A DNA stretch of 64,000 bases from a virus (Duplodnaviria > Caudoviricetes). Made by a program: the position numbers and the translations under genes. This document shows positions 2,393 to 60,628 of this stretch, piece after piece. The stretch lies in IMG/VR virus record IMGVR_UViG_3300036770_008730, one strand, 5' to 3'. The notes under the pieces were generated by a model. That model was not told where the DNA came from. It was given only the letters and a program-made list of their open reading frames with translations, and ran no database searches. The number at the start of each line of letters is the position of its first letter. The first letter of the stretch is position 1.

Positions 2393-3457
2393 ATGAAAAA
2401 ACAATCATTTTTGGAAAAAGCGAGAAATAAACACGGTTATCGTTATGAGTATATTGATTTGCCTGATATAGTTATGCAAAAAGACCTTATAAAAGTAAAA
2501 TATAATGATTCAATTTATGAGCAAAGAGTATTGAAGCATTTGAAAGGTAGTAGGCCTGAGAAAAAAACCGTAAATAAGACCACTGAAGAATTTATAAGAG
2601 AGTCTGTGAAAGTTTGGGGAAATAAGTATGATTATTCTTTAGTTGATTATAAAAATGCAAAAACTAAAGTAAAAATAATATATGATAGCATAGTCTATGA
2701 GCAACTTCCAAACTCACATTTGATTGGATGTCCAGTCGAGGGATATTTAGATCAAGAAGTTTTTATACAAAAGTCCATAAAAAAGTGGAAAAACAAATAT
2801 GGCTACTCTTTAGTAGAATTTGTAAATGCTAATACTAAAGTAAAAATTATTTTTAATGATAAGATATATGAACAAACACCACATAATCATTTAAAATATG
2901 CTCCTGAAAAAAGATTAAATAAAAAAAGCACTGAAGAATTCATAGTTATGTCTAAGGAAATTCATGATAATAAATATACTTATGAAAAGACAAATTACGT
3001 TTCAGATAGAGCAAAAGTTATAATAACATGTCCACTGCATGGAGAATTTGAACAATCATGTAATGCTCACCTCAGAGGTCAAGGTTGTCCTAGTTGTAAA
3101 GAGTCAAGAGGTGAGAAGATAATTTCTTCATTTTTGAATAAATATGATATAAATTTTGTTAGGCAAAAAACATTTCCTGATTGCAAAGATGAAAGTCACC
3201 TTAGGTTTGACTTTTATTTACCAAGTGCTCGGACTTGTATTGAGTTTGATGGTATTCAACATTTTCAACCATTGAAATGCTTTGGTGGTCATGTATCTTA
3301 CTTTAAATTAAAAAATAGAGACAAAATCAAAAACGATTATTGTGAGGATAATTACATCAATTTAGTTAGAATCAGGTATGACCAGATAGATGATATTTAT
3401 CAGATTTTGTGGGAGAATTTAAAGAATTGGATAAAAGTTAGCAATAAGGTCAACTAA
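2393..3457 (+). CDS. Free-standing homing-type endonuclease (repeat DNA-binding units + PD-(D/E)xK nuclease)
   Basis: Three to four KYDYSLVxYxNxxTKVKII repeats, CPLHG...GCPSC Zn site, RFDFYLP...IEFDGIQHF nuclease core. Start moved to the ATG behind the AATATATA box. Confidence 0.8.
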   Translation: MKKQSFLEKARNKHGYRYEYIDLPDIVMQKDLIKVKYNDSIYEQRVLKHLKGSRPEKKTVNKTTEEFIRESVKVWGNKYDYSLVDYKNAKTKVKIIYDSIVYEQLPNSHLIGCPVEGYLDQEVFIQKSIKKWKNKYGYSLVEFVNANTKVKIIFNDKIYEQTPHNHLKYAPEKRLNKKSTEEFIVMSKEIHDNKYTYEKTNYVSDRAKVIITCPLHGEFEQSCNAHLRGQGCPSCKESRGEKIISSFLNKYDINFVRQKTFPDCKDESHLRFDFYLPSARTCIEFDGIQHFQPLKCFGGHVSYFKLKNRDKIKNDYCEDNYINLVRIRYDQIDDIYQILWENLKNWIKVSNKVN

Positions 3458-4042
3458 TTTATCCATTAATATTCCTATATTTTCCCTGGTTTCATAATTT
3501 ATTTCAAATGATTCTTTTAGGTATTTTGATAGAAATTCTACTTGTTTGAAATCTCTGTTATCTAGTGCTATATCAATTAGGTCATTGATTTCTCTTTTGG
3601 ACATATTTTCATAGTCTAATTCTTTGAGTTGTTTCCATTCTTCGCCTTCGGAATCCATTTGTTTTTTCATATCTTGAAGAAAATCTATTAGGAAGTGTAT
3701 TGATTTTTCTACACCTTCTTGAAATGATTTATCTATGAATATTGGTCGATTGGTTTTAAGAGTTTTATCGAATTTTTCGAGAATTACTCCTTTGAATTGT
3801 TCTGATAGAGATGGATGGTTATTTACTGATCCGGCAAACATTTCGAATAGAGTGTCGATTAGGTAGTCAGCCCCTTGTTCTAGTTTTTGTTTGTTATTAA
3901 CTATTCTTACCATTTTTTCTACTATGAATACTGGTTCGAGGCTTTTTACAATAGATTTTTTAATCGCCTCGACGCTTGCTTTGAATTCGTCATCGTTGTT
4001 TATGTTTTCTAGAAATAATTTCCAGTTTAATATTTTTTTCAT
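3419..4042 (-). CDS. Hypothetical protein with capsid-targeting-like leader (MKKILNWKLFLE)
   Basis: Leader motif; start moved to the second Met. Confidence 0.6.
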   Translation of the reverse strand: MKKILNWKLFLENINNDDEFKASVEAIKKSIVKSLEPVFIVEKMVRIVNNKQKLEQGADYLIDTLFEMFAGSVNNHPSLSEQFKGVILEKFDKTLKTNRPIFIDKSFQEGVEKSIHFLIDFLQDMKKQMDSEGEEWKQLKELDYENMSKREINDLIDIALDNRDFKQVEFLSKYLKESFEINYETRENIGILMDKLVDLIANFYPIL

Positions 4043-4084
4043 CTCTTTTTTATGGATTTTCATTTCAGATATGAATCATTGATT

Positions 4085-4753
4085 TTATTCCTTTTTTGGA
4101 TTAATCTTATAATAAAGAATAACTCCTAAAATTAAGATGTTAGTTGCGTAATTTAGTAATAAAGGTAAATCTAATTTATCATATACATATGCTAAGGCAA
4201 ACACTTCACCGAAAGTCCAAAGTAAAATGAATCCCCAAGAAATACCTTCAGAGTTTTTGTCTTTGTATGATTGCCAAGCTTGAGGTAATCCACATATTGC
4301 TAAACATATTGATCCTAACCAACCTAAGATTTCGAATATAGTCATTGATTTAACTTTATCTGTTATGGTGGATGCTGATACTTCTTCTAATTTATGTTCT
4401 GGTATTCTATACCCATATTTATCTTCAACATGGTTTATAAGTTTGTGAGATAGTTCTATTAATTTAGCGGAATCTTTATTTCCTAGATTAGTTTCAATTT
4501 CAAAAAGTATATTAGAAAGTTGTTCGTCATTGCTTTTAGTTTTTCTGATTGTTGAGATTTCTTTTACTTTATCTATTGTTTCTTTTGCATTTAATTTAGT
4601 CTCTGAAGATTGTTCAATTTGATTTGTATTAGATGCAATTGTTTGTTGAGGTTGTGATACTGCAAGAGTTGTTCCTAAGGCAGCTGTGGTTAGTGCTTTT
4701 CTGAGGTCAATTTCTTCATTGATGAAATCGTTATATCTTTTAACCTTTTGCAT
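4085..4753 (-). CDS. PQ-loop/SemiSWEET-like membrane transporter with N-terminal extension
   Basis: C-terminal ILGWLGSICLAICGLPQAWQSYKDKNSEGISW unit with three TM helices; leader MQKVKRYNDFINE. Confidence 0.75.
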   Translation of the reverse strand: MQKVKRYNDFINEEIDLRKALTTAALGTTLAVSQPQQTIASNTNQIEQSSETKLNAKETIDKVKEISTIRKTKSNDEQLSNILFEIETNLGNKDSAKLIELSHKLINHVEDKYGYRIPEHKLEEVSASTITDKVKSMTIFEILGWLGSICLAICGLPQAWQSYKDKNSEGISWGFILLWTFGEVFALAYVYDKLDLPLLLNYATNILILGVILYYKINPKKE

Positions 4754-4767
4754 TTCTAAAGTATATA

Positions 4768-5082
4768 TTAAAATTTATGTGGAAAAATACTTCTCCATTC
4801 ATGTCCTTGTGGAACATCTTTAGTTCTAACTCCGAATATCTTTTTTTCAGGACAAGTGTCTTTACCATCCATTAGGAAGTTATTATTACAAGCCCAAACT
4901 TCGGCAGTTCTATTTAGAATTTGACCAACTGAGAAGGGAAATCTCATTCCAGAGTTATTTTCAATGCTGGTGATTCTACCGTCAGGTGTTTTTGTTACGG
5001 TTATTTCAAGTCTTGAATTTCTTTTATGAGTGAATTTAACTTCTCTAAGATTTAGAGATTCAAAGTTTTTAAGATGTTTCAT
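4768..5082 (-). CDS. Hypothetical protein with MKHLKNFE leader
   Basis: Leader motif; start at the second Met. Confidence 0.6.
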   Translation of the reverse strand: MKHLKNFESLNLREVKFTHKRNSRLEITVTKTPDGRITSIENNSGMRFPFSVGQILNRTAEVWACNNNFLMDGKDTCPEKKIFGVRTKDVPQGHEWRSIFPHKF

Positions 5083-5519
5083 TTTATTACTCCCCAAATG
5101 GTATCAACATTTATATTGTAGTCAATTAGGATATTCTCAATCTCTTGAAAGTTGATATCATTATATCCTATTACATTTACAAGTCTATCACTATACCAGC
5201 CTTTAAATATATCCCAATTATCACAATAATCAAAATTACCATCTTCATTAGATGTTAAATATTCAACGGCATCATCTAGTGTTTCATGAACAGAAGTATA
5301 GCAACTATAATCTATATTGATCATCATATATTTTCCCATTTCGCCTGGATTTTCCCATGATGATATACTTTCTGAAAGTTCTATAAATAGGACCGAATAA
5401 ACACGGTTGATAGGTAACTTATCGACTTGTGGTGATAATTTAGATTTCATAAGAGCCAACTCTAAGGAATTTGCTTGCTGTGGACTTAGATTCTCATTAA
5501 AATTTTTCAAATGTTTCAT
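5079..5519 (-). CDS. Hypothetical protein with MKHLKNFNE leader
   Basis: Leader motif; AATATATA box 5 nt upstream of this ATG. Confidence 0.6.
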   Translation of the reverse strand: MKHLKNFNENLSPQQANSLELALMKSKLSPQVDKLPINRVYSVLFIELSESISSWENPGEMGKYMMINIDYSCYTSVHETLDDAVEYLTSNEDGNFDYCDNWDIFKGWYSDRLVNVIGYNDINFQEIENILIDYNINVDTIWGVIK

Positions 5520-5535
5520 AGTGTATATATTAAAA

Positions 5536-6408: not shown

Positions 6409-6492
6409 AAAGAGATTTATTTTGTAATTTATATATTAAAATGGTTTATTTTGACGGATAAAATTCGTAAATTTGTATATAATATTTTAGAT

Positions 6493-12337: not shown

Positions 12338-12772
12338 ATGAACAACAGAAATTTTTTCGGAGACTTCGATTCATTCTTTAATGAATTCGATTCATTTTTT
12401 AATCAACCATTCAACATTATGGGTGAGACAAAAACAGAAAAAGGACAAGACTCAAAAGGTGAGTGGGTAAAACAAACTTTTACATCAAAAGATGGTTCTA
12501 TTAGAACTACTACTTTTGTAAGAACCGTAGGTTCAAATAAAACAAAAAGCGCATCTTCAGTAAAGATTGGTGATCTGAAATCAGAATTAGAAGCTTGTGT
12601 AGAAAAACAAGAATTTGAAAAAGCGGCTGAGCTTCGTGACCTAATTAAGTCAATTGAAAACAACAAACAAAAAATTGATGATTTAAATAGTGAATTAGAA
12701 GTTGCTGTAAAAAATCAAAACTTTGAAAAGGCAATTGAACTTAGAGATAAGATTAAAAAATTGCAAAAATAA
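12338..12772 (+). CDS. UvrB/UvrC (UVR) coiled-coil domain protein, two repeats
   Basis: LEACVEKQEFEKAAELRD and LEVAVKNQNFEKAIELRD. Confidence 0.85.
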   Translation: MNNRNFFGDFDSFFNEFDSFFNQPFNIMGETKTEKGQDSKGEWVKQTFTSKDGSIRTTTFVRTVGSNKTKSASSVKIGDLKSELEACVEKQEFEKAAELRDLIKSIENNKQKIDDLNSELEVAVKNQNFEKAIELRDKIKKLQK

Positions 12773-12854: not shown

Positions 12855-13424
12855 ATGGAAAAGTTTAGCAAGTTAAAACCAAAAGATGGTTTGAATATTG
12901 ATAGTAAAGACAAAGTAGTTTTTGACAGTGACCATTTTAAAATAGTTGATTTTGAGGATTGGCAAGTATTGAAGGATAGAGATTGTGTTGTTTGCATTCC
13001 ATACTTGATTGAAACAAATCAATTTGTTGTTAGATATGAATATATTCCTACCTTCAAATATGTAGATGGTCAAGAATATCATGTTACTGTTGTTGGTGGT
13101 GGTATTGAACTTGGTGAAACTCCACAGAAAGCAATGCTTAGAGAGTTAGAAGAAGAAGCCGGTATTGTTTTAAGAGAAGATTATAAATTAGAGGATATGA
13201 AACCTCTTTTTATCAGTAAGTCACACGCTAATAAGTATTATCCTTTTATTATTCCTCTTAATGATAGAGACTATCATGAGGTGATTGCGACTGGTGATGG
13301 TTCCGAAATTGAAAAGATTAGTAAATCAGTAAAAGTAGATATAAAGTATTTAAGTAATTTGAATCCTTCTGATTTAATCACTGATTATATGTTAATGAAA
13401 CTAAAAGAATACTTGAACATTTAA
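12855..13424 (+). CDS. Nudix hydrolase
   Basis: GGGIELGETPQKAMLRELEEEAG. Confidence 0.9.
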   Translation: MEKFSKLKPKDGLNIDSKDKVVFDSDHFKIVDFEDWQVLKDRDCVVCIPYLIETNQFVVRYEYIPTFKYVDGQEYHVTVVGGGIELGETPQKAMLRELEEEAGIVLREDYKLEDMKPLFISKSHANKYYPFIIPLNDRDYHEVIATGDGSEIEKISKSVKVDIKYLSNLNPSDLITDYMLMKLKEYLNI

Positions 13425-14809
13425 CGAAGTCCTGTATTGCCTTTTTCTAGATATCTTTTAAGTTCCGAAATTATTTCCTCATTTAGTTGTTTGTTATCAA
13501 CATGTCCATAATCTGAAAAGTATGGATCTAATTCATTTCTAAAGTAAGATTCATCACCCCACTCCACTAATAGAGTTCTTAATGATTTTGAGTTAATAGA
13601 ATCAGCATCAACTGATTCTAACCAATCATTAGTATATGGTAGAATATAATAAGTCATTTCTACTTTATATTCTTTCTTTTCCTTTTCACCTTCTTTATTT
13701 GTTATGAAGTAGTGTTTAGTTATTTCTTTTGTTGTCTTTTCAAAAGAACCAATATCATTACTAACTACTCTATCAAATGCTTGTACAATGTCTTTGTAGT
13801 TTTGATAAGCGTGTGCATCACACTCTGCTTGAGCAACTGCTGAAGTAACATCTCTCCAAACATCAGAGTCATTAAATTCTGTTTTAATCCATTTTTTTAA
13901 CAATTCATTGAATCTTTCATTTACAAAAAACTCAACAAGTTCTTCTTCTGTTTGAAAATCTTTTGGAAAACTATTTTTTGCTGATGTAACACTATTTTTT
14001 TCCCATTTTTTTACTTCTTCAAATCCACCAAATTCTTTAATAAGAGATTTTGCTAATAACTCTTTTGTTTCTTTATCAAATACATATGAAAACAAGCTGT
14101 TGATATCTTGCTCATAATCAACAGAGTAATAGTTGTCCCAGAAATCATCAATAGGTCCTTTGACTAATACATCTTTATAGCTTGATTTACTACTTAGTAA
14201 TATATCTGCCATATCTTCTATACTAACGTGTAGAAATACTTTATCACCTCTGAGCTCTGTATTTTCATCGATTTTTATATTGTAGTAATCTATGATGTCT
14301 TTTTCGGTCAGTTTAACTTCTTCTTTTTGTTTCACAAAAAGTGCGATATAATCATCTGCTCCTATATCTGAATCGCCACCTATTGAACTTTCATCAATCC
14401 ACAATCCACCTTTTATTCTAATTCTATCTAGTTCTAATTCACTAGATGAATCGTAAATACCTATGTCAGTGTTTGCCTCAACTGATATATAACTAACTGC
14501 AAATTTTAGGTTTGATGTTACATCTTCGTCCGTTATTTTATCTCCAGAAAATATCTTAATAAAGATGGCTGGTCTTTTATATTCACCTGCTAAAACCTTA
14601 TCAGTGAATACATCTTTACCCACATTAGATCCAAGTTTTGTCGTCATATTTCCTTTTTCAACAAATCCGAATTCAATTTCTAAAAAGTATCCTTCATCAG
14701 TAGATTCTAAAAACAATTCTTCAATGTCTTCTTTTGACATATTCCAAATTGATTTTTTAGATTCCTCAACTGATTCTTTTATGAAGTCGATATACTTTTT
14801 AAGTTTCAT
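13421..14809 (-). CDS. Acidic hypothetical protein with MKLKKYIDFIKE leader
   Basis: Long ORF; leader motif; AATATATA box 8 nt upstream. Confidence 0.65.
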   Translation of the reverse strand: MKLKKYIDFIKESVEESKKSIWNMSKEDIEELFLESTDEGYFLEIEFGFVEKGNMTTKLGSNVGKDVFTDKVLAGEYKRPAIFIKIFSGDKITDEDVTSNLKFAVSYISVEANTDIGIYDSSSELELDRIRIKGGLWIDESSIGGDSDIGADDYIALFVKQKEEVKLTEKDIIDYYNIKIDENTELRGDKVFLHVSIEDMADILLSSKSSYKDVLVKGPIDDFWDNYYSVDYEQDINSLFSYVFDKETKELLAKSLIKEFGGFEEVKKWEKNSVTSAKNSFPKDFQTEEELVEFFVNERFNELLKKWIKTEFNDSDVWRDVTSAVAQAECDAHAYQNYKDIVQAFDRVVSNDIGSFEKTTKEITKHYFITNKEGEKEKKEYKVEMTYYILPYTNDWLESVDADSINSKSLRTLLVEWGDESYFRNELDPYFSDYGHVDNKQLNEEIISELKRYLEKGNTGLR

Positions 14810-14842
14810 TATATAATATATATTAAAAATTATCAATATTAA

Positions 14843-15703
14843 ATGAAGTATTTGAAATTATATGAGGATTTTATGGAAGGTGAATCACTTCCAGGAGTTG
14901 ATATATCTCCGGATGAACAAAAAGAGCTACCGAGACCCTCAAAACAAATACTTTTAGATGGAACTTCAAGTTCTGGTAAAAGTGTAGCTTTAAAGAATTT
15001 AGGATCTGACTGGTGTGTTTTGGCGGCTGATGAGTTTTATGACTTGATTGGTGAAGATTTAGGTAAAGTTAATTTCAATAATAAACAAACTATTAGTGAG
15101 GTTTATCCAGATTGTCCTTATAAATTCTCAGAACCGGGTGGTGATAACTATGAGTTTGCTTGTAGGTGGTATATGGCTCAAGAAGTCAAATTTGGAAAAG
15201 TAAAATCTCTGGGTATGATTTCAAGAAATAAAAATATGGGTAGAAGTGATGAACAGATGAATATAATATATGATGATGTTCAGGGAACAATATTGAATGA
15301 GGTAACAAAAGCCGGACTTGCTAAACCAAAATGGATTTTAGTTCATGCTCCAATCGATCATTTAATCTCAAATATATTAAGCAGACCCGAAGGTGACCGC
15401 AGAGATCCAGAAGGTGTATTTTGTGGAGCTTATTGTTTTAAGTATGAAGCAAAACCTGAAAAAGGAGGAGTTGATCCTGAAAAATCTTGGACTATATCTT
15501 CGGTAAAAGAATTATTTAAAGATCAAAATTGGACCAATCTATTCTTAGATAAAGTCGGAATTAAAGAAGATGGTGTTGAATACTGGATGCATATTAAAAA
15601 TATGCCAGAAGGAACATATGATGTTATAGTAAATACAAGAAATGATGAAGGTGGTCAAAAGACAATTAGTGAAGTGGCTTCGGAAGTTAAAAGACATTTC
15701 TAA
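14843..15703 (+). CDS. P-loop kinase (chloramphenicol-phosphotransferase/NMP-kinase-like) with MKYLKLYE leader
   Basis: ILLDGTSSSGKS Walker A, ADE, YDDV. Confidence 0.6.
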   Translation: MKYLKLYEDFMEGESLPGVDISPDEQKELPRPSKQILLDGTSSSGKSVALKNLGSDWCVLAADEFYDLIGEDLGKVNFNNKQTISEVYPDCPYKFSEPGGDNYEFACRWYMAQEVKFGKVKSLGMISRNKNMGRSDEQMNIIYDDVQGTILNEVTKAGLAKPKWILVHAPIDHLISNILSRPEGDRRDPEGVFCGAYCFKYEAKPEKGGVDPEKSWTISSVKELFKDQNWTNLFLDKVGIKEDGVEYWMHIKNMPEGTYDVIVNTRNDEGGQKTISEVASEVKRHF

Positions 15704-17473: not shown

Positions 17474-18661
17474 GTGATTAAAAGCAAAGATTTCATACTC
17501 AATACATTTCTAACTCTTACCTCAGAAACTTATCCTTATGGCACTGAAAGTGTTATCTTTGATAAAATGGTAAAAGAAAATCTATTACCAGAAACTGTTC
17601 AGACCGACCAACATGGAAACTATTTCTTAAAGATTGGAGAATCTCGTACAATTTTCGCATCACATCTTGATACTGTTTGTAAAGAACACACACAGGTTGT
17701 TCACCAATTTGATGGTGATCTTATAAAAACTGATGGTAAAACTACACTTGGTGCTGATGATAAAGCTGGTGTAACTATCATGCTTTGGATGATTAAACAT
17801 AATATACCTGGATTATATTACTTTTTTATAGGCGAGGAAGTTGGTTGTATTGGTAGTGGATTAGCTGCTAAATATGGTGACTTCAAAGGTAAATATGATA
17901 GAATTATTTCGTTTGATAGAAAAGGTACAAATTCGGTTATTACTTATCAATCCTCAAGTCGTTCTTGTTCTGATGATTTTGCAAAACAATTGGCAAAAGA
18001 ATTGAACAAAAGTGGTCTTTCATATAAATTAGATGATACTGGTGTTTATACCGACTCGGCTGAGTTTGTTGATGTTATACCAGAGTGTACTAATCTTTCA
18101 GTAGGTTATTATTCAGAACATACATTTAGAGAAAGTCAAGATATAAAACATTTGACTAAATTGGCAAATTCTTGTCTTTTAGTTGATTGGGAAAATTTAG
18201 TCACAAAAAGAGATATGTCCAAAATGGAATTGAAGAGTATGTATACCAATACTTACTCAACTTATGAAACTTCTGATTGGAGAAATCGTGACCATGATTA
18301 TGGATACTCTTCCGGTTCAAGAAAAAAAAGAAATAGAAGAAGTAAATCTAAAAGTAGATACCATGATGATTGGTATGACCAAAATACCAGTTACAATAGT
18401 TACAACAACAATTGGACTTCTTTTGTTCCAGCTGGTAAATCTTATTATGATGGAGTTGATGGATTAGTAGAAGTAAAAAAATCTGATGAAAAAAACTTCT
18501 CATACTACTCTTATGATTGGATCATGACTAAATTTACCAACAAAGATTTAGATTATGATACTTTAATGACTATTAAAGACCAATACTTAGATATGAATAA
18601 TCCATCTGACAAAGAGTTTTATAAATATTTGTTAGATGTTGCTAGCGAGCAAAGTCTATGA
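17474..18661 (+). CDS. M20/M28-family Zn peptidase
   Basis: SHLDTV, LGADDKAG, GEEVG, FDR, TDS, NLSVGY..EH. Confidence 0.82.
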   Translation: MIKSKDFILNTFLTLTSETYPYGTESVIFDKMVKENLLPETVQTDQHGNYFLKIGESRTIFASHLDTVCKEHTQVVHQFDGDLIKTDGKTTLGADDKAGVTIMLWMIKHNIPGLYYFFIGEEVGCIGSGLAAKYGDFKGKYDRIISFDRKGTNSVITYQSSSRSCSDDFAKQLAKELNKSGLSYKLDDTGVYTDSAEFVDVIPECTNLSVGYYSEHTFRESQDIKHLTKLANSCLLVDWENLVTKRDMSKMELKSMYTNTYSTYETSDWRNRDHDYGYSSGSRKKRNRRSKSKSRYHDDWYDQNTSYNSYNNNWTSFVPAGKSYYDGVDGLVEVKKSDEKNFSYYSYDWIMTKFTNKDLDYDTLMTIKDQYLDMNNPSDKEFYKYLLDVASEQSL

Positions 18662-18854
18662 TGTCTGAAATATTTATATCTTCTTCAGGTGCATTAAAAA
18701 TTTTAGATTGTTCAATATTATGAGATATTTTGTATTTTCTTTTAGAAACTTTTTCAAGTATCTTTACAGGTGTAATCATATCATTATACCAGTATTGAAT
18801 AAGAACAATATCACCTTCTTTATAAAATGATTTATACTCTAATAAAAACTTCAT
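18642..18854 (-). CDS. Small SH3/KOW-like protein with MKFLLEYKSF leader
   Basis: GDIVLIQY...PVKIL...KYKI beta pattern; AATATATA box 6 nt upstream. Confidence 0.5.
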   Translation of the reverse strand: MKFLLEYKSFYKEGDIVLIQYWYNDMITPVKILEKVSKRKYKISHNIEQSKIFNAPEEDINISDIIDFAR

Positions 18855-18869
18855 AAAACTATATATTAA

Positions 18870-27115: not shown

Positions 27116-27147
27116 AATTTGGTTTTCATAAAAAAATATATATCTAT

Positions 27148-27645
27148 ATGAAAAAGTTTAGCCAAATAGAAAGCCAAAATGAAGGTCTTAAAGAAAAGAT
27201 AGTTAGTGGTTTAGCTGGACTATCTATGTTAGTTTCCTCTTGTCAATCAATAACACCTGAAGAAAAACAAAGATTACAGACTGAGATTGAACATCTTAAT
27301 CAACAGCAGGATCATGATAAGAAAATGGTTAATTACTATGATGCTCAATCTAAAGATAGAATGTCGAAGGTTAGAGAACTTGAAGATGAAATAGGTGAGT
27401 TAGAAAAGAAATTAGGAATTCTAAAAACTGGAAAAAAACCTAAATTTATACTAAAGCTTCACCTTGAAGAAGGTGGATTGGACAATATTGGAAATTTTGA
27501 TAGATTACAATTTGATATTGAAATCCCTGTTGATGAAGAATATTTTAAAAAGTGTAAAGTTGGTGAGGAGCTAGCAAAAGATGTTAGACTTACAAACATA
27601 TTTCAAAACTGTAATCTGACTGTTGAAGATAAAAGAATGGAATAA
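27148..27645 (+). CDS. Putative lipoprotein, coiled-coil, with leader MKKFSQIESQNE
   Basis: IVSGLAGLSMLVSS-C lipobox-like segment; AATATATA box 6 nt upstream. Confidence 0.55.
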   Translation: MKKFSQIESQNEGLKEKIVSGLAGLSMLVSSCQSITPEEKQRLQTEIEHLNQQQDHDKKMVNYYDAQSKDRMSKVRELEDEIGELEKKLGILKTGKKPKFILKLHLEEGGLDNIGNFDRLQFDIEIPVDEEYFKKCKVGEELAKDVRLTNIFQNCNLTVEDKRME

Positions 27646-27649: not shown

Positions 27650-28039
27650 ATGATAAAAAGATATTTAAATTTTATAGTTGAGGCTGATGAGGTTAACGTT
27701 GATAAATTGGAAACCGATCAATCTTCTTCATCCGATTTTATCGAGGTTAAGGATGAATTAATGTCGATGATTGAAGAAACTGCAAAAAAACAAAAACAAG
27801 AACCAAATTCATTTTTGAAAGAATTTCTAAAAAATCCAAAAGATGTTAAGATAGACGGTCTAGTAACAGATTCTGATGTATTTGAATTTTATAAAAAATG
27901 GGGAAATGATATTGATGAAATTTTGAATAAGATAAAATTTTTCAATGAAAGACCAAGTGATTTGAATGCAATAGGTTTATATAAATATCTAATAATTGCA
28001 ACCGAAAAGGCTATAGTAGAATTCCTAAAAACAAAATAA
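27650..28039 (+). CDS. Hypothetical protein with MIKRYLNFIVE leader
   Basis: Leader motif; start at the second Met. Confidence 0.6.
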   Translation: MIKRYLNFIVEADEVNVDKLETDQSSSSDFIEVKDELMSMIEETAKKQKQEPNSFLKEFLKNPKDVKIDGLVTDSDVFEFYKKWGNDIDEILNKIKFFNERPSDLNAIGLYKYLIIATEKAIVEFLKTK

Positions 28040-34981: not shown

Positions 34982-37028
34982 TATGTTAAGTAGGTTATCT
35001 TCTTTTTCTGGTCCTAAGTCTGTTTTATTCAAAATACCTGGTGGGTTTACACTTTCTGGATTAATATTGAGATATCTTATATCAGACACTGATTCATATT
35101 CGGGAACAACTACGGTAACTGACTTAAAGAGTAATTCGAACGCAACACTTAGCGGTGGTCCTACTTTTTCAGGTAATGGATATTTAAATTTTGATGGTGT
35201 AAATGATTATTTACTTACAAGTACATCACTTGATCCTGTTTTATCACCTGTTAATACATCCACTATAATTTCTTATTTTCTTTGGATTTACCCACAGGAT
35301 AATGGTGTCATAGTTAATGAGTTAGGATCATCGAGTATATTAGCAGGATGGCATGATGCACAGATTGAAATGGTTTCGGGAACTCTTAGATTTGCTGTTT
35401 GGCCTCACTTAGGAGGTTACATTACATCTTCTGTATTAACTCCGTTAAACAATTGGTATTATGTTGGGTTAACATATGATGGCTCGACATTAAGAGCATG
35501 GGTAAATTCACAATTAGCAGGAAGTCTTACAATTACAAGACAATCACCCAATAGTGGTGGTGCTGATTTATTTTATGGAATTGCAGTAGCTGATACTACT
35601 AATTTAGGGGATGGCTCATATGCCAAAATGAAATTTGGTGATTTTCATGTTTACAACATTGCTTTATCATCCCAACAAATTCTTAATAATTACAATGCTA
35701 CTAGAAATAATTATATCTTTACAACTGGTATGTTAATCTGGATAGATGCAAATGATCCTCAAAGTTTTTCAGGCGGTTCAATTAGTGATTTAAGTGGTAA
35801 TAATTACACACATACTTTAGCATCAGGTGCTACCTCATCTAATGTTTATGGATTCAAATCATTTAATTGCACAGCTGTTTCAAATAGCTCTATCAGAGTA
35901 AATGGCACAGGACCGACACTTTCTACAACCGGATACACTTATGTGACCTGGGCAAGAATAAAGTCCGATTCTTCTACATATAGAACTCTTTTTAGAAGTG
36001 CTCCTAATGACCATGCTATTTTAGTTGATATAAATACAGATAATTTAGGATTCTGGGATAATGACTCTGGTGTTTCAGGGTTCAAAGATTCTGGGTATGA
36101 TGTTACTTCAATCGAGGAAAAATGGGTTCAATATTCTGTTGTTGGTGATTCTTCAAGTAGTATATTTTATATAAATGATGTACAAGTTGGTTCTGTTTCT
36201 TTTGGTGCAGGTGGTAATAAGCATGATTATTTTGGATCAATTGATGGCCAACCTTTTGGATATGTTGGAAACATGATGTTATATAATAGAAAGTTAACAC
36301 AGACTGAGATTAAACAAAATTATGATGCTCTTAAAAATGTTTATGCTAATGGTGATTTTGTAAGCAATAATTTGATACTATATTATAATCCGGCTAGTTA
36401 TTTAAGCTATTCTGGTTCTGGAACGAATGTATCAAACTTATCATCTAATTCACTAAACGGCACTTTATCAAATGTTACTTTTGGAAAAACATACTTTACT
36501 TTCAATGGATCCAATTCTCAAATTACTATTAATGATAATAGTTTGTTAGAACCCGGATCTGGCGATTGGACTATGGAGGTTTGGATTAAACCTACATCTC
36601 TCTCAGCACCCGGACAAGTAGTTTTGGGTAAGTTTGATCCTGGTGGACTTTCAGCTGATATTTCTTATGCTATAAGAATTTCTAGTAGTAATGTTAGAGC
36701 TGATTTTAGTAATGGTACAAGCGCAGTAGTTACATCCAATTATACTCTTACCTTAAATACATGGACACATTTAGTTTATGTATTCAATAATGTTGCAAAT
36801 AATAATATAATAACATATGTAAATGGTGTCTCTTACAGTACAACAACTCATAGTTTTGCTAGTATATTAAATACATCAGCTAACCTTTATTTAGGTTCAT
36901 ATAATGGTGGAGAATATTCTCAATATTTTACTGGTCAGATGGGAATAGTAAGATTATATAATTCTGCTTTAAGTGCCTCTGATGTTTCTAAAAACTTTGA
37001 GGCAAATAGATTAATTTACGGTATTTGA
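34974..37028 (+). CDS. LamG/concanavalin-A-like domain protein (receptor-binding or decoration)
   Basis: Three tandem units: FDGVND...WYYVGLTYDG, WVQYSVV, WTHLVYVF...LYNSALS. Confidence 0.8.
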   Translation: MINMLSRLSSFSGPKSVLFKIPGGFTLSGLILRYLISDTDSYSGTTTVTDLKSNSNATLSGGPTFSGNGYLNFDGVNDYLLTSTSLDPVLSPVNTSTIISYFLWIYPQDNGVIVNELGSSSILAGWHDAQIEMVSGTLRFAVWPHLGGYITSSVLTPLNNWYYVGLTYDGSTLRAWVNSQLAGSLTITRQSPNSGGADLFYGIAVADTTNLGDGSYAKMKFGDFHVYNIALSSQQILNNYNATRNNYIFTTGMLIWIDANDPQSFSGGSISDLSGNNYTHTLASGATSSNVYGFKSFNCTAVSNSSIRVNGTGPTLSTTGYTYVTWARIKSDSSTYRTLFRSAPNDHAILVDINTDNLGFWDNDSGVSGFKDSGYDVTSIEEKWVQYSVVGDSSSSIFYINDVQVGSVSFGAGGNKHDYFGSIDGQPFGYVGNMMLYNRKLTQTEIKQNYDALKNVYANGDFVSNNLILYYNPASYLSYSGSGTNVSNLSSNSLNGTLSNVTFGKTYFTFNGSNSQITINDNSLLEPGSGDWTMEVWIKPTSLSAPGQVVLGKFDPGGLSADISYAIRISSSNVRADFSNGTSAVVTSNYTLTLNTWTHLVYVFNNVANNNIITYVNGVSYSTTTHSFASILNTSANLYLGSYNGGEYSQYFTGQMGIVRLYNSALSASDVSKNFEANRLIYGI

Positions 37029-37145: not shown

Positions 37146-37153
37146 AATATATA
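37146..37153 (+). promoter_or_regulatory. AATATATA box (putative phage late promoter; representative copy of about 20)
   Basis: Same octamer lies about 5-35 nt upstream of many start codons on both strands. Confidence 0.55.
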
Positions 37154-37157: not shown

Positions 37158-38117
37158 ATGATTAAAAGATATCTTCAGTTTATAAAAGAAGGTCAAATAG
37201 AAGAATTCAATTCACTTGGTGAGTGGATTGAATCTTTATATAGTGATGATTATATCAAAAATTTAGTTGCTAGGTATACAAAGGAAATCGACCCTACAGT
37301 TAGACTGGCTAATGCAATTAACATTTTAGAGGACTTAGATAAAAAAGAATTAAAATCTCAAGTAGAATATTATCTAAAGAATGGTATTGAAGAAAAAGAA
37401 CCTAAATTTTTAATTTCTACTGATTTAGAACCTTTAACAGAATCAGAAATATCTGTAGCTGGTAAAGGTATATTTACTTCCTTTTTGAAATGTCTTACAA
37501 GCTTAGGACAGAAGGAAAAAGAACCAGATTGGAAAATGTGTCCTGATAACTTTTTACTATTCTACTATTTTCCACTTTTAGAATCTAATGTAGTAAAACA
37601 AATTTTTACAAGATTCAAATCTCTTTCTTATTATTTAGACTTAATTGATTATCAAAAAAATGAAACAAGTTTATATTTTGGTATTAGATGTGATGGTTTA
37701 TTTGAATATGGTTTGCATTATGAGACTTTCACACCAATAGGTCAATTCAAATTATCTAAATCAGTTATGAAATGGATATGTCAATTAGAATCTAAATCAG
37801 CATCATCTCTTAAAAAACAATTAGTTAATTTAACTTATGGAGATATAATAACTTTAGGTTCAATTAAAAATGATATGAAAATTTTTACACCTGGTTATCA
37901 CGAAAAGAAAATCACACCTTGTTTAAATGATAGAGTTATTAGTTTTGGTTATTATGGGTGTGGTAAATGGGATAATGGAAGATTAGACGAAGGAGAACTT
38001 AGTAATATAAAATCTAATTTTTCAACATTTGCTTTAAGTAGAAAATGGGGAGATAAGATACTAATAAGTATAAAACCAGAATCTTTCTGGATAAAAATAC
38101 ATATCAAATTGAAATGA
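37158..38117 (+). CDS. Hypothetical protein with MIKRYLQFIKE leader
   Basis: Leader motif; AATATATA box 5 nt upstream. Confidence 0.65.
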   Translation: MIKRYLQFIKEGQIEEFNSLGEWIESLYSDDYIKNLVARYTKEIDPTVRLANAINILEDLDKKELKSQVEYYLKNGIEEKEPKFLISTDLEPLTESEISVAGKGIFTSFLKCLTSLGQKEKEPDWKMCPDNFLLFYYFPLLESNVVKQIFTRFKSLSYYLDLIDYQKNETSLYFGIRCDGLFEYGLHYETFTPIGQFKLSKSVMKWICQLESKSASSLKKQLVNLTYGDIITLGSIKNDMKIFTPGYHEKKITPCLNDRVISFGYYGCGKWDNGRLDEGELSNIKSNFSTFALSRKWGDKILISIKPESFWIKIHIKLK

Positions 38118-38440
38118 GACTTATAAAAAAATTTGAAAATTATGCTCAAGATTTACCAGAGCAACTTCCATATAAAAGAGATGAGGAATCTGTAAATATT
38201 TTTCCAAAAGAAGAACTATCTGAAGAAATTCAATATGAGGAAGATGATGAATTTGTTATTACTAAAATTGTTGAAAATTTCCCATTTGATGAGGTAAAAT
38301 CAAGAATTGAAGATGAATCAGAAGATGATAAAGAAACAGTATTGTTAGATATGATTGTTTGGTTCAGAGATACCTTTGGTAAAGAAATTAAAAATGAAGA
38401 TTATATTCTCGATAGATTAAGAGAAGAATATAGTATTTAA
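38114..38440 (+). CDS. Acidic hypothetical protein with MRLIKKFE leader
   Basis: Leader motif; coupled to the previous ORF. Confidence 0.6.
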   Translation: MRLIKKFENYAQDLPEQLPYKRDEESVNIFPKEELSEEIQYEEDDEFVITKIVENFPFDEVKSRIEDESEDDKETVLLDMIVWFRDTFGKEIKNEDYILDRLREEYSI

Positions 38441-41752: not shown

Positions 41753-43498
41753 ATGATAATAGGTGAGATTGGTATAAGGGGATTTAAGTCCTTTGGTAAT
41801 AACGAAACTGTACTAAAACTAAATACAGAGAAAGGAGAACTAATTCTCCTTGTTGGTAACAATGGCGCTGGTAAATCATCATTATTAGATTCTTTTGATT
41901 ATACTCTTTATGGTAAGGTTAGAGGAAAGAAAAAAAGATGGACCACTCTTTCTACTTTACCCAATCGTATAAATGGTGAATTACTTAATCGTATTAAATT
42001 CATTTCAAATTCTACCGAAGTAGAAATAAAAAGAGGTATATCTCCAAATCTTTTAGAGTTATATGAGAATGGTCTTTTAAATGAAAGAGCTGGCAAAGCT
42101 AATCTTGATGAGAAAATAGAAAAGTATATTGGTATGGATATTGAAACATTTAAATCATTTATCTCCATGTCAATTAATGATTTTAAGAACTTTATTTCAC
42201 TATCAAATGAAGAAAAACAACTACTTCTAGATAAGTTATTTAATTTAGAAGTTATCAACATTTTAAATTCTATTTTGAAAGATATTAATAAAGGAAATAA
42301 AATTAGAATGGCTTCAATTGATAGTGAAATTAAAACACTTGATGAATCAATACAGTCAATTAAAAGGTCTATTGAAAAGGCACTTGAAAGAGAAAGAGAA
42401 GAACAGAGATTAGCACTTGAAAGAGAAAAAGAAGATATTCAATTTGAGATTGATAAATTGACTACCGAGATGAGTTCAAAAAAGGATGACTACAAAACTC
42501 TTAAAGACAAAGTAGAAAAAATAAAAAATAAAGAAACCGAACTTAGTGATGAATTAGAGATTGAAAAAAAACAACATCTAAATACACAAAACGATATTAA
42601 AAATGTTCAAAAAGAAATTGACCTTTATGATTCTGGTAAATGTCCTACTTGTAAGACAGATTTCAACTCAGTTCATTTCTCAAGCTTAAGAACATCACTT
42701 GTTGATAAAAAAACAGCTTTTGAAAATATCAAATTAGAAATTGAGGAAAATATAAGAAAGATTAAAGAAAAACAACAAAAACTTAAAACACTTTCAGAAT
42801 CAACAACTACTGCTTTCAATGACTTAAACTATCTTCTTAAAAACATAAAAGCAGAAATTGATAAACTTACTCAGAAAAAAACCACACAAACAGTTTCTGT
42901 TAAATCATCACCATCAATTAATACTAAAGAATTTCAAAATACTATAGATGAGCTAAATGATAAGAGAGTTGTTGCTAAGGAACAAGATACAATCTGTAAG
43001 GAAAAAGAACTTTACTACAAAGAGTTGAATAGAATTTTTAGCGAAGATGGTGTTAAAAAGTCAATTATCTCTGGTATTATTAAACCGATTAATCATTTTA
43101 TCTCCGATAACATTAAAAAGATGTCAATGAATTTTGATGTAAGATTAGATGAAACTTTTACAGCCGAAATTAAACAACTAGGTAGTATAATTGAACACGA
43201 TTCTCTTAGTACGGGAGAAACTAAGAAAATCAATATTTCAATTTTGATAGCTTACTTAAAATTAATAAGAACAAAAAGGCATATCAATATTTTATTTTTA
43301 GATGAAGTTTTCTCTTCAATCGACATTGAGGGTATTGATTCAATTTTGACATTGTTGAAGTCGTTTGCTAACGACTACAACATTAATATATTTGTAGTAC
43401 ATCATGCTATATTAAACCAAGAAATGTTTGATAGAATAATTAAAATCAATAAAGAAGTTTTTTCCTCAATTGAAGAAGTTTTATTAGATAATATATAG
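41753..43498 (+). CDS. gp46/SbcC/Rad50-like recombination ATPase
   Basis: GNNGAGKSS, CPTC Zn hook, LSTGE signature, LFLDEVF, VVHH. Confidence 0.92.
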   Translation: MIIGEIGIRGFKSFGNNETVLKLNTEKGELILLVGNNGAGKSSLLDSFDYTLYGKVRGKKKRWTTLSTLPNRINGELLNRIKFISNSTEVEIKRGISPNLLELYENGLLNERAGKANLDEKIEKYIGMDIETFKSFISMSINDFKNFISLSNEEKQLLLDKLFNLEVINILNSILKDINKGNKIRMASIDSEIKTLDESIQSIKRSIEKALEREREEQRLALEREKEDIQFEIDKLTTEMSSKKDDYKTLKDKVEKIKNKETELSDELEIEKKQHLNTQNDIKNVQKEIDLYDSGKCPTCKTDFNSVHFSSLRTSLVDKKTAFENIKLEIEENIRKIKEKQQKLKTLSESTTTAFNDLNYLLKNIKAEIDKLTQKKTTQTVSVKSSPSINTKEFQNTIDELNDKRVVAKEQDTICKEKELYYKELNRIFSEDGVKKSIISGIIKPINHFISDNIKKMSMNFDVRLDETFTAEIKQLGSIIEHDSLSTGETKKINISILIAYLKLIRTKRHINILFLDEVFSSIDIEGIDSILTLLKSFANDYNINIFVVHHAILNQEMFDRIIKINKEVFSSIEEVLLDNI

Positions 43499-44504: not shown

Positions 44505-44505
44505 C

Positions 44506-56864: not shown

Positions 56865-56876
56865 TTTAAATTGTTA

Positions 56877-57989
56877 TTATTTTTTTTTGAACTCTTTTTT
56901 ATCATTAGAAATATATAAATTGTCAAAGTTATAATACTTATCAAATATTTCTCTAATTTTTTTTGGTTTTACTTCATCTAAGATTTCATAAACTGACCAA
57001 TCTTTTGGATTAATCCATTGATTAACATTTTTATATCTTAAGATTTCTTCTTTTTGTTTTCTTACACCATAATATTCCTTTACTATATTAAACCTATCTT
57101 TAGTTAAGTATTTACCTGGATTATCTAAAACTATTTTAATTGAATCAACAACAGCATTAAAGTTTTTATTTGAAGTTTGTGTTGATATAGTATTGATACC
57201 TTGATTATTTAGTCTTGATTGGTAACAGTGAACATAATATACCAATCCTCTTTTCTCACGAATCTCCTGATAAAGAGGTGATTTCAATCCTAAAGAAAGC
57301 ATTGCATTTATAAAATGAATATAAGCAAAGTCTTCATTAATTACCGGTGAAAGAATTGAAATAGAGGTCTTATCTTTGAAATCATTATTTAACTCTAATG
57401 GAACTTTATGGTCACCATAGGTAGTGTCTTTAACGATTATTCTGTCAGTAAAATCTAAAGTATTGTTTTTATACTTTTTGTTTTTACTAACATTAATTAC
57501 TTTAGTAGGTTTTGAATATTGAAGTTCAAAGTAGTTCAAACAATCCATAAATTTAAGATTTACTAAATCCTCTTTTAAACCAATAGGATCATAATCGTTA
57601 AATAATTTTCTCGAAAGATTTAACATATGTGATTGAGATTGGTCATTAAAGCAATCCATATATTCTTCTAATACGATGTTTCTTTCATTTTCAAACTGTT
57701 CTTTAGTAACATTGAACTGACCAAGTAAGTCCATAAACTCACCTTTCCACTTATTTACTTTTTCATCTAATCCTGTTAGATAAAACACTATTTCATTTGA
57801 TGAAGTGTAGGCATTCCATTCGATACCATCTTTATCAAAATCTTCTTGAAGATGGTCAAAGTTTTTGCACATAAGATGCTCCATTAAGTGTGATATACCA
57901 TACCACCCTTTTTTCTCTAAATTAGTCGAGCCTTCATAAACTATGTAAAAGCCAGATAAGTCTGTTTGAGATTTTAAATTAATGATCAT
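56877..57989 (-). CDS. M16 (insulinase-like) Zn peptidase
   Basis: GISHLMEH, NAYTS, ERNIVLEE, SPLYQEIREKRGLVY. Confidence 0.9.
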   Translation of the reverse strand: MIINLKSQTDLSGFYIVYEGSTNLEKKGWYGISHLMEHLMCKNFDHLQEDFDKDGIEWNAYTSSNEIVFYLTGLDEKVNKWKGEFMDLLGQFNVTKEQFENERNIVLEEYMDCFNDQSQSHMLNLSRKLFNDYDPIGLKEDLVNLKFMDCLNYFELQYSKPTKVINVSKNKKYKNNTLDFTDRIIVKDTTYGDHKVPLELNNDFKDKTSISILSPVINEDFAYIHFINAMLSLGLKSPLYQEIREKRGLVYYVHCYQSRLNNQGINTISTQTSNKNFNAVVDSIKIVLDNPGKYLTKDRFNIVKEYYGVRKQKEEILRYKNVNQWINPKDWSVYEILDEVKPKKIREIFDKYYNFDNLYISNDKKEFKKK

Positions 57990-58038
57990 TGTTGAATAAA
58001 TAGTTTATTACTATTTATATAATTTTAAAATGTTAAGT

Positions 58039-58968
58039 TTATAAAACTTCATCTAATAAGATAATTTCATTACCGGTATCTTTAAATTTAAGTTTCACAC
58101 CATTATCAGATAATGATTTTGCAATCTTTGCTATTAAATCTTCTCTGTTCATTTCTGTAAAATAAATTTGTCCAACATCTGAATTATGAATCTCCTCTAA
58201 TAGGTCATTTACACTTATTATCAATCTGTCAAAGTCTACCATGAAGAAATTTTCCATATCAATTCCTTCAAAGTCAATATCTTCGATGATTTTACTTTTT
58301 AAACTATTCAAACTTCTTTCAACAAAATCTTCTCTTAAAACACCAGCTTGTTTTAACATAAGCTCTCCGTACTTAGTATGATGATAACCATAAGAGTATC
58401 TGATTAGAACCTCTTCATCATCTGTAACATATTCACACCAACCACCTCCACCTAATTCCACAATGTTAGGATCGTGACCTAGCTTTTCAGCTAATTTGTA
58501 AAGATAAATATCAACTAATCCATTTTGATTATCTAGTCCATAGGAGTTTATGAAATCCTGGAATTGTTGAAATGTTAAAGCATTGATTTCTTGTGAAAAT
58601 AAATTTTGTATAGATTGCATATTCCAACCACAATCCTCTTCAATTTCTTTTTGAATTAGTTCAAAATCTTTATCTGGATCATCTTTCTTTTTACAAAGAT
58701 CGGAATAAGACCTTCCCATTGCACAATTTTTTATTGACTCAGCAAAATCTTCTCTCAAATAACTTAACCAGTCTTGATGATTAGTAGTAATTTGTTCATA
58801 ATTATCACCTTCGAATTTTCCAATATATTTGACCGCTGATATATTGTTCGATGAATAGTTTAAAATCAATCCCCAGTGAGTGCCCGATGTTGCTAAAAAA
58901 TCATCAACTGAATTGTAGTTGAATTGATTATTCTCTTTCAGAAATTGGTTGTATCTGTTTAATTTCAT
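58039..58968 (-). CDS. Hypothetical protein with MKLNRYNQFLKE leader
   Basis: Leader motif; 309 aa. Confidence 0.65.
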   Translation of the reverse strand: MKLNRYNQFLKENNQFNYNSVDDFLATSGTHWGLILNYSSNNISAVKYIGKFEGDNYEQITTNHQDWLSYLREDFAESIKNCAMGRSYSDLCKKKDDPDKDFELIQKEIEEDCGWNMQSIQNLFSQEINALTFQQFQDFINSYGLDNQNGLVDIYLYKLAEKLGHDPNIVELGGGGWCEYVTDDEEVLIRYSYGYHHTKYGELMLKQAGVLREDFVERSLNSLKSKIIEDIDFEGIDMENFFMVDFDRLIISVNDLLEEIHNSDVGQIYFTEMNREDLIAKIAKSLSDNGVKLKFKDTGNEIILLDEVL

Positions 58969-59092
58969 TTGTTAACTTTTCTTTTTCTTCTTCTTCGGAA
59001 TCAATGAAAATTATTTGTTCATTTTTATCAAGAAAATCCTCATCAATATATCCTATATCGCTGTCATTAAAATAGGGAAATCTTAGTTTCAT
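58928..59092 (-). CDS. Small acidic ORF missed by the track (54 aa)
   Basis: MKLRFPYFNDSDIGYIDEDFL...EEEEKEK; AATATATA box about 22 nt upstream. Confidence 0.4.
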   Translation of the reverse strand: MKLRFPYFNDSDIGYIDEDFLDKNEQIIFIDSEEEEKEKLTNEIKQIQPISERE

Positions 59093-59123
59093 AAAAATAT
59101 AAAAGGTTTTAAGTATATATTAT

Positions 59124-60089
59124 TTAATACTTTCTATTTTTTAGATGTTTTAGGAAATCAAAAGAATCATCAAATTTATTTTTCAACAAATCTTCGATAG
59201 ATTCTACTTTTGTTAATTCTGATAAAAATCTTTCTTTTTCAAAGATATGCTCAGCAGCATCTTTTGCAAATTGACTTAAATAGATATTACATTTAATTTT
59301 ATATTCTTCAAAAAAATGTTTCAAAATAGCCGATGTTCTAAGACCCACTTGGTCATTATCAGAAAATATATTTATAACCGATGGCCTTTTTTTAAGTAAT
59401 TTATAAAGTTGTATTCCTGTCCACATTGCAGAAGAACAACTAACTGTTTTTTTATTCATCTTTATCATGGCCATCATATCAAACAAACCTTCTGTCATCC
59501 ATATTTCATCTCCCTCACTGATGTTATTCAATCCCCAGACCGGAATATCAGGACATGCTAAGCTATATTTAAGTGATTTTGATGAGTTGATTTTTCTAAC
59601 CGAGCAGTTTATTAACAGCCCATCTTCAAAAAGAGGTATGATTATACCCCCACTTTCAATACCATCATCTAAAACTTTATTAAGAATTGGATGACAAGTA
59701 GCTCCTATTATTTCTAAGTGTTTTTTATCTTTTATAGATGATAGACCAAGTATTGACCATTTTAAGATTGTTTCATCTCCAATTCCCCTATTAGTGAGAA
59801 ATTCATATTCTTTCTCATTAAAGTTTCCAACATTATCCCTTATTAACTTGGTAAGAGATTGTAAGTCTTGTTTTGTAACAATGATGTCTTTTACTTTTAA
59901 GTTGAGTTCTTTCTTTTTAACTTCAACCATTCTTTTATCATTATTGAAGTTATTTCTACACTTTTCTAAAATTGATTCAACATCATTAAGTATGTTTGGA
60001 TTTATTGAATTATCAATAAAGTTAGCTACGACTCCTTTTACAGATCTGTTATTGTAAAGAATAAAAGCTAATTCTTCATTAGTCCACAT
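59124..60089 (-). CDS. DnaG-like Toprim primase-domain protein
   Basis: YEFLTNRGI, IIIPL...R, MTEGLFD, FSDNDQVG. Confidence 0.75.
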   Translation of the reverse strand: MWTNEELAFILYNNRSVKGVVANFIDNSINPNILNDVESILEKCRNNFNNDKRMVEVKKKELNLKVKDIIVTKQDLQSLTKLIRDNVGNFNEKEYEFLTNRGIGDETILKWSILGLSSIKDKKHLEIIGATCHPILNKVLDDGIESGGIIIPLFEDGLLINCSVRKINSSKSLKYSLACPDIPVWGLNNISEGDEIWMTEGLFDMMAMIKMNKKTVSCSSAMWTGIQLYKLLKKRPSVINIFSDNDQVGLRTSAILKHFFEEYKIKCNIYLSQFAKDAAEHIFEKERFLSELTKVESIEDLLKNKFDDSFDFLKHLKNRKY

Positions 60090-60628
60090 TAGTTATATGC
60101 TTGAAGCTTTATTATATAGTTATAACCCAATACCTCTTCAAATCCATATTCTTTTATTGTTGAGATATATTCGTTTTCAATTATATTCACTATATCCTCA
60201 AAGGTTAGATTTTCTTCTTCAAAATTTTCTACTTCTTCTGTCTCTATATCATATACCGATAACATAGCATCATAATTTGTATCATTAACTCTGATAGATA
60301 AAATTATCATATAATTTTCATCTGCTAGAATGAAAGCGTGATATTTATGTTCCTCATCATATCTAACCATGATATTAAAATTCTCAGTTTCAATAATACC
60401 ATTTGGTTCTTTATCCGCCTGAATAAATACTGAAATAAATGGATATTTATAATTGACTATTTTCAAAAGAAGAGTTTCAATTGTTTTTTTATCTGGTGTG
60501 TAATCAACCTTATTATATTTACTGTAATTTTTACTTAAATAGTCAATTTCAGCTGATGGATCTGTTGAAAAAACTAAGTCTTTGATTTCTTCACTATCAA
60601 ACAACTCATTAAACTTTTTTATCTTCAT
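60089..60628 (-). CDS. Hypothetical protein with MKIKKFNE leader
   Basis: Leader motif; AATATATA box about 24 nt upstream. Confidence 0.6.
   Translation of the reverse strand: MKIKKFNELFDSEEIKDLVFSTDPSAEIDYLSKNYSKYNKVDYTPDKKTIETLLLKIVNYKYPFISVFIQADKEPNGIIETENFNIMVRYDEEHKYHAFILADENYMIILSIRVNDTNYDAMLSVYDIETEEVENFEEENLTFEDIVNIIENEYISTIKEYGFEEVLGYNYIIKLQAYN

Follow-up and report, generated by a model that had tools for sequence, protein, structure and literature searches.

A two-class set of N-terminal leaders in a huge uncultivated phage as a candidate equivalent to the T4 capsid targeting sequence

The internal proteins of bacteriophage T4 are a known case in which a short N-terminal peptide directs unrelated proteins into a phage head and is removed by the prohead protease gp21. 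In the T4 record, the N-termini of internal proteins IPII and IPIII read MKTYQEFIAE and that of IPI reads MKTFKEF; the first 10 residues of IPIII are enough for packaging, and the genetics of this capsid targeting sequence (CTS) assign targeting mainly to residues 4 and 7 and processing to residues 8 and 10 (PMC9026906). Full-text searches of the literature found the T4 tag described only for T4-like and for some giant phages, and found none on leaders of huge phages. The present analysis concerns 13 protein N-termini encoded in one stretch of viral DNA, IMG/VR record IMGVR_UViG_3300036770_008730 (hereafter the window), a 64-kb part of a roughly 600-kb uncultivated phage in which 68 open reading frames (ORFs) with 20,340 amino acids were scanned. 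The initial annotation had proposed that about 12 unrelated proteins of the window share a leader like the T4 CTS. All 13 N-termini quoted for that proposal are present at their starts (Table 1), and 10 of them pass objective tests of the leader; the remaining three are weaker, and the leaders are not of one type, about seven being strictly T4-like. On balance, the leaders appear to be the megaphage counterpart of the T4 CTS, in a greatly expanded variant with two classes, and the phage probably packs many different proteins in its head for delivery with the DNA, as judged from sequence comparison.

The window, with 29% guanine plus cytosine (GC) and an absence of Shine-Dalgarno sequences, comes from a huge phage of Mahaphage-like type. 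The records nearest to it belong to uncultivated huge phages 634-735 kb in size (LR745206, LR756502, LR756504 and LR756501), and a contig of up to 598 kb is also known to encode one of its proteins. For tests on a whole-genome scale the relatives LR745206 (634 kb) and LR756504 were used, both taken in full. T4-type core genes are common to the window and these relatives, the window encoding UvsX (1052-2278) and gp46 (41753-43498), and LR745206 also has homologues of gp20, gp23, gp19, gp41, gp43, gp47, gp32 and UvsW.

Seven window leaders belong to class A, defined as M-x-K-K-[YFW]-x-x-F-[IL]-x-E. The strict pattern drawn from it, [YFW]..F[ILMVY].E, has seven matches in the whole window, six of which have their first residue at position 5-7 of the protein (4753, 14809, 18854, 27650, 37158 and 58968, genes being named here by their first nucleotide), and 47 in LR745206, where 21 fall at residue 4-7. 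The window and LR745206 together served for the iteration of a position matrix, which was applied with a threshold of 8.5, the 0.1% tail of internal positions. That threshold is passed by 92 of 963 N-termini, against expectations of 1 for internal positions and about 4 for shuffled N-termini; the matrix-positive window genes are 4753, 14809, 14843, 18854, 27650, 37158 and 58968, with the second Met at 4042 in addition, and across the 92 leaders the aromatic column holds Y, F or W in every case and is followed three residues on by Phe in 67. Class B comprises type B1, MK[HY][LI]Kx[FY] (79 of 103 occurrences N-terminal), which covers 5082, 5519 and 14843, and type B2, IKKFNE (29 of 34), which covers 60628. 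The weakest of the 13 leaders are those of 38114, whose [LI][KR]KFE[NSD][FY] (LIKKFENY) type is N-terminal in four of six occurrences, and of 27148, whose MKKFSQI type is N-terminal in all six occurrences across three genomes. Called starts carry a leader in 13.2% of cases in the window and in 14.9% in LR745206, as against 0.5% and 0.8%, respectively, of other ATGs with at least 30 open codons. Chance or base composition as the cause of the shared leaders is ruled out by the motif counts, the matrix and these other-ATG controls; enrichment at protein starts, on which the initial annotation had staked its proposal, is found in both the window and LR745206. Leader hydrophobicity is low (mean -0.39 to 0.13), and the first 20-25 residues do not form the h-region of a Sec or lipoprotein signal; 27148 is the sole leader protein of the 13 with an h-region and Cys, and these come after the leader. 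A further protein of the window, encoded at 12338-12772 (+), has the N-terminus MNNRNFFGDFDSFFNEFDSFFN with an FDSFFNE unit repeated nearby, which is a loose match to the motif and not a leader.

The leader is a real, amino-acid-selected module, joined to unrelated proteins through a variable linker. With the leader removed, the 13 bodies gave no significant pair in an all-against-all BLASTP comparison (all E > 0.1). Orthologues in LR745206 exist for six of the 13, and the leader is kept in all five N-termini that were read, even at 36% identity, the overall value for the orthologue of 13421-14809 (LR745206 273423-274772), where it reads MRLKKYLEFIKE. Homologues of 37158 keep M-I-K-[KR]-Y-x-x-F-I-x-E in 119 of 120 cases among the matches listed, and in the structural model of this protein residues 1-14 have a predicted local distance difference test score (pLDDT) below 50, with the leader outside the modelled fold; a fold search with that model returned no meaningful match (template-modelling score about 0.12). 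In the kinase-like family of 14843 the leader stands at the start of all 45 full-length homologues (44-90% identity), separated from an invariant P-loop body by a linker that varies in length from 0 to about 25 residues. The AlphaFold model of 14843 places a helix at residues 2-11 and has pLDDT below 50 at residues 17-24 and above 90 in the body, the predicted form of which resembles an adenylate- and uridine-kinase-like fold. Three different P-loop kinases carry a nearly identical 21-residue leader-linker, MKYLKLYEDFMEGESLPGVDI. The metagenomic proteins P0047, P0048 and P0049, of shikimate-/adenylate-kinase type, begin with 21 residues nearly as in 14843-15703 and continue in a different body, and at the sequence level this shared N-terminus points to recent exchange of a leader-linker module.

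Near-identical leader-linkers on different kinases, suggestive as they are of recombinational exchange, could also be taken to mean that the shared N-termini are a by-product at the nucleotide level, either of a recombining promoter-plus-start cassette or of the needs of leaderless-mRNA translation. The distance from the box AATATATA, which lies upstream of many leader genes, to the ATG peaks at 4-6 nucleotides (nt) and at 17-28 nt, and the first of these peaks would fit such an origin. It is nevertheless very improbable, because synonymous codons at the conserved leader positions match genome-wide use (Phe TTT/TTC 49/18 versus 71/29%; Leu over five codons), which places the constraint on the peptide and rules out one on the nucleotides; leader substitutions are, moreover, conservative in the protein (Y/F/W, I/L/V/M), and 50 of the 85 matrix-positive leader genes of LR745206 have no box within 40 nt.

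The resemblance to T4 claimed by the initial annotation holds. The T4 determinants Y4, F7, I8 and E10 are exactly the four conserved columns of the leader, and a matrix trained on megaphages only, when applied to 207 T4 ORFs, picks out IPII and IPIII (13.3), IPI (9.7) and gp61.1, together with three borderline others. The product of T4 gene 61.1 (AF158101 18966-19130, -) is a hypothetical protein of 54 amino acids that begins MKTFKEFIKED, and its leader score of 19.9 is the top of all scanned T4 ORFs, above IPII and IPIII. Both the T4 CTS and the megaphage leader occupy the extreme N-terminus with about 10 residues, among them an aromatic residue, Phe three residues on and Ile/Leu-x-Glu, and have unrelated cargo behind them. 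The genes concerned form clusters in both, and relatives of the window encode a gp21-type protease. The processing positions (Ile/Leu-x-Glu) are present in the class A leaders of 4753, 14809, 27650, 37158 and 58968, the exceptions being Tyr in 18854, F-M-E in 14843 and F-N-E or L-F-E in class B. Unlike the CTS, the megaphage leader is 1-3 residues longer, has Lys-Lys before the aromatic residue and occurs in a second class, and it is far more widespread: T4 has 3-4 such genes, the window about 10-13 in 64 kb and LR745206 about 130 (15% of its ORFs). The cargo is also without sequence similarity to the T4 internal proteins; phmmer searches of every ORF of the window and of LR745206 with IPI, IPII and IPIII gave no match at E up to 10.

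Comparison with further systems gives a similar mixture. As in the T-even internal-protein loci, diverse and fast-evolving cargo stands behind a conserved leader in tandem arrays, and some of the cargo has a likely anti-defence role (PMC3012670; PMC9026906); unlike in those loci, the megaphage arrays are spread over the whole genome, and the cargo includes enzymes of 300-660 amino acids and a membrane protein. The phiKZ-like giants have long propeptides with a different cleavage motif and are not known to use a short common N-terminal tag. A likeness to these giants, of which SPN3US is an example, lies in their ejection or inner-body proteins, many head-internal species being trimmed there by a gp21-related protease (PMC5694885; PMC10052503).

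It could be argued that only the approximately seven class A leaders are CTS-like and that MKHLKxF, IKKFNE and MKKFSQI represent a separate N-terminal convention of the clade, with another targeting role or none, as class B leaders score low on the class A matrix (3.6-5.4 or lower) and do not have the I-x-E ending. Such a division is improbable, given that orthologous kinases swap class A-like and class B-like leaders before the same body, and that both classes are restricted to the N-terminus and share a common plan, hydrophobic-K-K-aromatic and then Glu.

A counterpart of the T4 CTS would be expected to act together with a head protease and a scaffold, and both were sought in the relatives. 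LR745206 presents, in T4 order, a portal gene (193127-194860), a gene for a 707-amino-acid protein (198546-200669) and the major capsid protein gene (200752-202434). The N-terminal 230 residues of the 707-amino-acid protein align with T4 gp21, with NRN.R.Y, GE..HP and VSSR.G invariant, and its protease domain is matched to gp21 by BLASTP (3e-4) and to Pfam S77 (E 1e-4); phmmer with T4 gp21, gp22, gp67, gp68 and Alt found no match in LR745206. Its assignment as a gp21-like protease is based on the profile match in Pfam, the pairwise BLASTP alignment, the invariant motifs and the order of the genes. Residues about 284-450 of the same protein (L002) consist of some eleven tandem 14-residue repeats, YSEY[LI]AENLDKNI, and a protease-scaffold fusion with 11-14 tandem Y-[ST]-[EN]-Y-[ILV]-A-E repeats is found in all four relatives (the homologues being L078 in LR756502, L077 in LR756501 and L054 in LR756504). 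The repeat core, Y-S-E-Y-I-A-E, shares the residue spacing of the leader and is near to Y-Q-E-F-I-A-E, the core of the T4 tag; of the occurrences of a relaxed form of the motif in LR745206, 11 lie in the protease-scaffold and 22-24 at N-termini, with about 55 more spread over the other 190,000 residues. Like the T4 scaffold core (gp22, gp67 and gp68, under the gp21 rule Ile/Leu-x-Glu), the megaphage scaffold has many hydrophobic-x-Glu sites, and in T4 itself the gp22 N-terminus, EQLIAE/A, resembles the CTS ending EFIAE/A. Unlike in T4, protease and scaffold are in one protein of 699-811 amino acids with a regular 14-residue repeat in 11-14 copies. Two small leader genes of LR745206 (202508-202897 and 204294-204803) follow the capsid gene downstream, at 73 nt and about 1.9 kb from its end, and the product of one of them is very acidic (a DDEDDDDEDY run), which recalls T4 gp67/gp68 beside genes 21-23. 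In the window, 17474-18661 (+) was considered as a head protease and ruled out, as it is not S77-like; it matches the peptidase family phrog_4191 (E 1e-70) and, weakly, M28.

These elements allow the construction of a model for how the leader may work. The leader would form a short N-terminal helix, as in the kinase model (residues 2-11), in which aromatic-x-x-Phe-Ile/Leu-x-Glu would copy one 14-residue repeat unit of the scaffold, and by this likeness would dock its protein onto the scaffold core during prohead assembly. The gp21-type protease, being fused to the scaffold, could then cut after the leader Glu and free the cargo inside the head, where the cargo would stay until it exits with the DNA at infection.

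Expression of the leader genes was considered from the box AATATATA, which the initial annotation had placed before most of these genes or their operon leaders. It lies within 60 nt of eight of the 13, and the other five each immediately follow a boxed gene of the same orientation. Leader and box co-occur both in LR745206 (odds ratio 3.5, p 6e-7) and in the window (odds ratio 9, p 0.012). In about 87 genes of the window and LR745206 the box ends 4-6 nt 5' of the ATG, and if it acts like the T4 late -10 element, the mRNAs of these genes would be leaderless or nearly so. In LR745206 the box precedes the genes of the tube (gp19-like), the portal (gp20-like) and the protease-scaffold, with the variant TATATATA before the capsid gene (gp23-like), and is absent before the homologues of gp43 (polymerase), gp41 (helicase), gp32 and gp47. 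This distribution fits a late class of genes, without being proof of it, and because the box is common to the head genes a late timing of the leader genes may be supposed.

The cargo itself offers a further view. Pfam and PHROGs searches gave no function for most window leader proteins. The very diverse folds seen by the initial annotation (a kinase, a transporter and a lipoprotein) are borne out in part, namely as a P-loop kinase-like protein (14843), a PQ-loop protein (4753) and a protein with a lipobox-like VSSC (27148); in 4753 the PQ-loop membrane domain (PF04193, 5.7e-13) is C-terminal, with two transmembrane-like segments. About a dozen of the 132 leader proteins of LR745206 have a Pfam match, distributed over 18 families with one protein each. 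Among them are Acb1, SMODS-associated NUDIX, NUDIX, Rnl1, 2H phosphoesterase, a polyA/CCA polymerase head domain, GH108 and peptidase M15, predicted types that would be in keeping with starter roles in counter-defence, RNA repair and cutting of the cell wall, and further RNase T and methyltransferases. The leader genes of this genome form 44 adjacent pairs, where 19.5 are expected, and are alike in this to T-even internal-protein loci. None of the 11 recognised homologues of T4-core replication and structural proteins carries a leader, nor does any of the seven largest window proteins.

A broader alternative grants that the leader is a protein-level tag and assigns it some other use, such as addressing proteins to another assembly or compartment, serving as an inactivating pro-peptide or acting as a stability or degradation signal, with no head loading. 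The presence of a leader in about 15% of proteins, a membrane protein and a lipoprotein-like protein among them, would sit well with such uses, as would a box that is not limited to structural genes. This alternative is unlikely, if less so than the two above, in view of the coincidence of the four conserved positions with those for T4 head targeting and gp21 processing, the repetition of the leader motif 11-14 times in the head scaffold and the recovery of T4 internal proteins by the matrix.

Several observations do weigh against the reading of the leaders as a counterpart of the T4 CTS. The window is without a head module, and the protease-scaffold is known from four relatives. The PQ-loop membrane protein 4753, which has a strict leader, and the lipoprotein-like 27148, which has a weak one, would be awkward head cargo. 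In class B the leader ending is F-N-E-S or L-F-E-S instead of I-x-E, and the equivalence of the two classes is drawn from their interchange within one family, that of the kinase. The helical hydrophobic moment of the leader is moderately above that of shuffled sequences, which amounts to a moderate amphipathicity and no more. In LR745206 the box also precedes uvsX, uvsW and gp46, and is no proof of late or structural expression. Lastly, a leader share of about 15% of proteins in LR745206 would mean, to our knowledge, far more species of head cargo than in any studied phage. With these points taken into account, the CTS-like reading is still favoured for the leaders themselves. The full proposal, in which megaphages of about 600 kb load more than 100 proteins (about 15% of the proteome) into the head by mimicry of the scaffold repeat, trim them and eject them as a starter kit, is put forward more tentatively, as a possibility that falls short of even likelihood.

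Table 1. Leader genes and upstream boxes of the window, with positions counted from its first nucleotide.
Feature	Coordinates	Strand	Remarks
207-aa (amino-acid) ORFan, leader MKKILNWKLFLE	3419..4042	-	Leader at second Met (alternative ORF start 4063); matrix 12.9; boxless, downstream of 4085-4753
222-aa protein, class A leader MQKVKRYNDFINE	4085..4753	-	Strict motif at residue 7; matrix 18.1
104-aa ORFan, class B leader MKHLKNFESL	4768..5082	-	B1 match; 66% identity to LR745206 orthologue
146-aa ORFan, class B leader MKHLKNFNE	5079..5519	-	B1 and B2 matches; box end 4 nt 5' of ATG
462-aa ORFan, class A leader MKLKKYIDFIKE	13421..14809	-	Matrix 21.4
286-aa P-loop kinase-like protein, leader MKYLKLYEDFME and disordered linker	14843..15703	+	Matrix 12.9
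70-aa protein, class A leader MKFLLEYKSFYKE	18642..18854	-	Strict motif; matrix 13.3; 83% identity to LR745206 orthologue
165-aa protein, weak leader MKKFSQIESQNE, then lipoprotein-like h-region and Cys (LVSSC)	27148..27645	+	Matrix 5.4
129-aa ORFan, class A leader MIKRYLNFIVE	27650..28039	+	Matrix 17.4; orthologue LR745206 285303-285713 begins MIKKYLQFIKE
319-aa conserved ORFan, class A leader MIKRYLQFIKE	37158..38117	+	Matrix 23.7
108-aa acidic ORFan, weak class B leader MRLIKKFENY	38114..38440	+	Matrix 5.4; overlaps stop of 37158-38117
309-aa ORFan, class A leader MKLNRYNQFLKE	58039..58968	-	Matrix 22.5; strict motif at residue 6
179-aa ORFan, class B leader MKIKKFNELFDSE	60089..60628	-	B2 match; box 23 nt upstream
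AATATATA box	37146..37153	+	4 nt 5' of ATG of 37158
Other AATATATA boxes	27135-27142, 14815-14822	+	Coordinates checked
Other AATATATA boxes	14817-14824, 4762-4769, 5524-5531, 18860-18867, 60652-60659	-	Coordinates checked

Other genes of the window were noted in passing. The 897-amino-acid protein of 28569-31262 (+) has no Pfam or PHROG match, and its gene is the top region of DNA-level conservation with LR745206 and LR756502 (about 70% identity over 3.2 kb). Positions 32474-37028 (+) encode an 835-amino-acid collagen-repeat fibre protein and then one of 681 amino acids that matches Laminin_G_3 three times, the pair being probably a module for a fibre or for receptor binding. On the opposite strand, 56877-57989 (-) encodes a 370-amino-acid protein in which the two halves of an M16 (insulinase-type) peptidase are both present, an uncommon feature among phages, and 62775-63854 (-) a 359-amino-acid protein with an S1 RNA-binding domain at its end.

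If the proposal holds, the starter kit of these phages would comprise RNA repair, functions against the cyclic-oligonucleotide-based antiphage signalling system (anti-CBASS) and NUDIX functions, wall hydrolysis and many further functions, and the leader would provide a sequence rule by which the injected proteome of uncultivated huge phages could be predicted. The delivered proteins would be the first to meet host defences, provided that the leader works as in T4. The likeness of the leader to the scaffold repeat unit suggests, in addition, a possible docking mode for the T4 tag. Most of the tagged proteins are ORFans, and the tag would thus provide, on the same condition, a first functional handle on much of the dark matter of huge phages.

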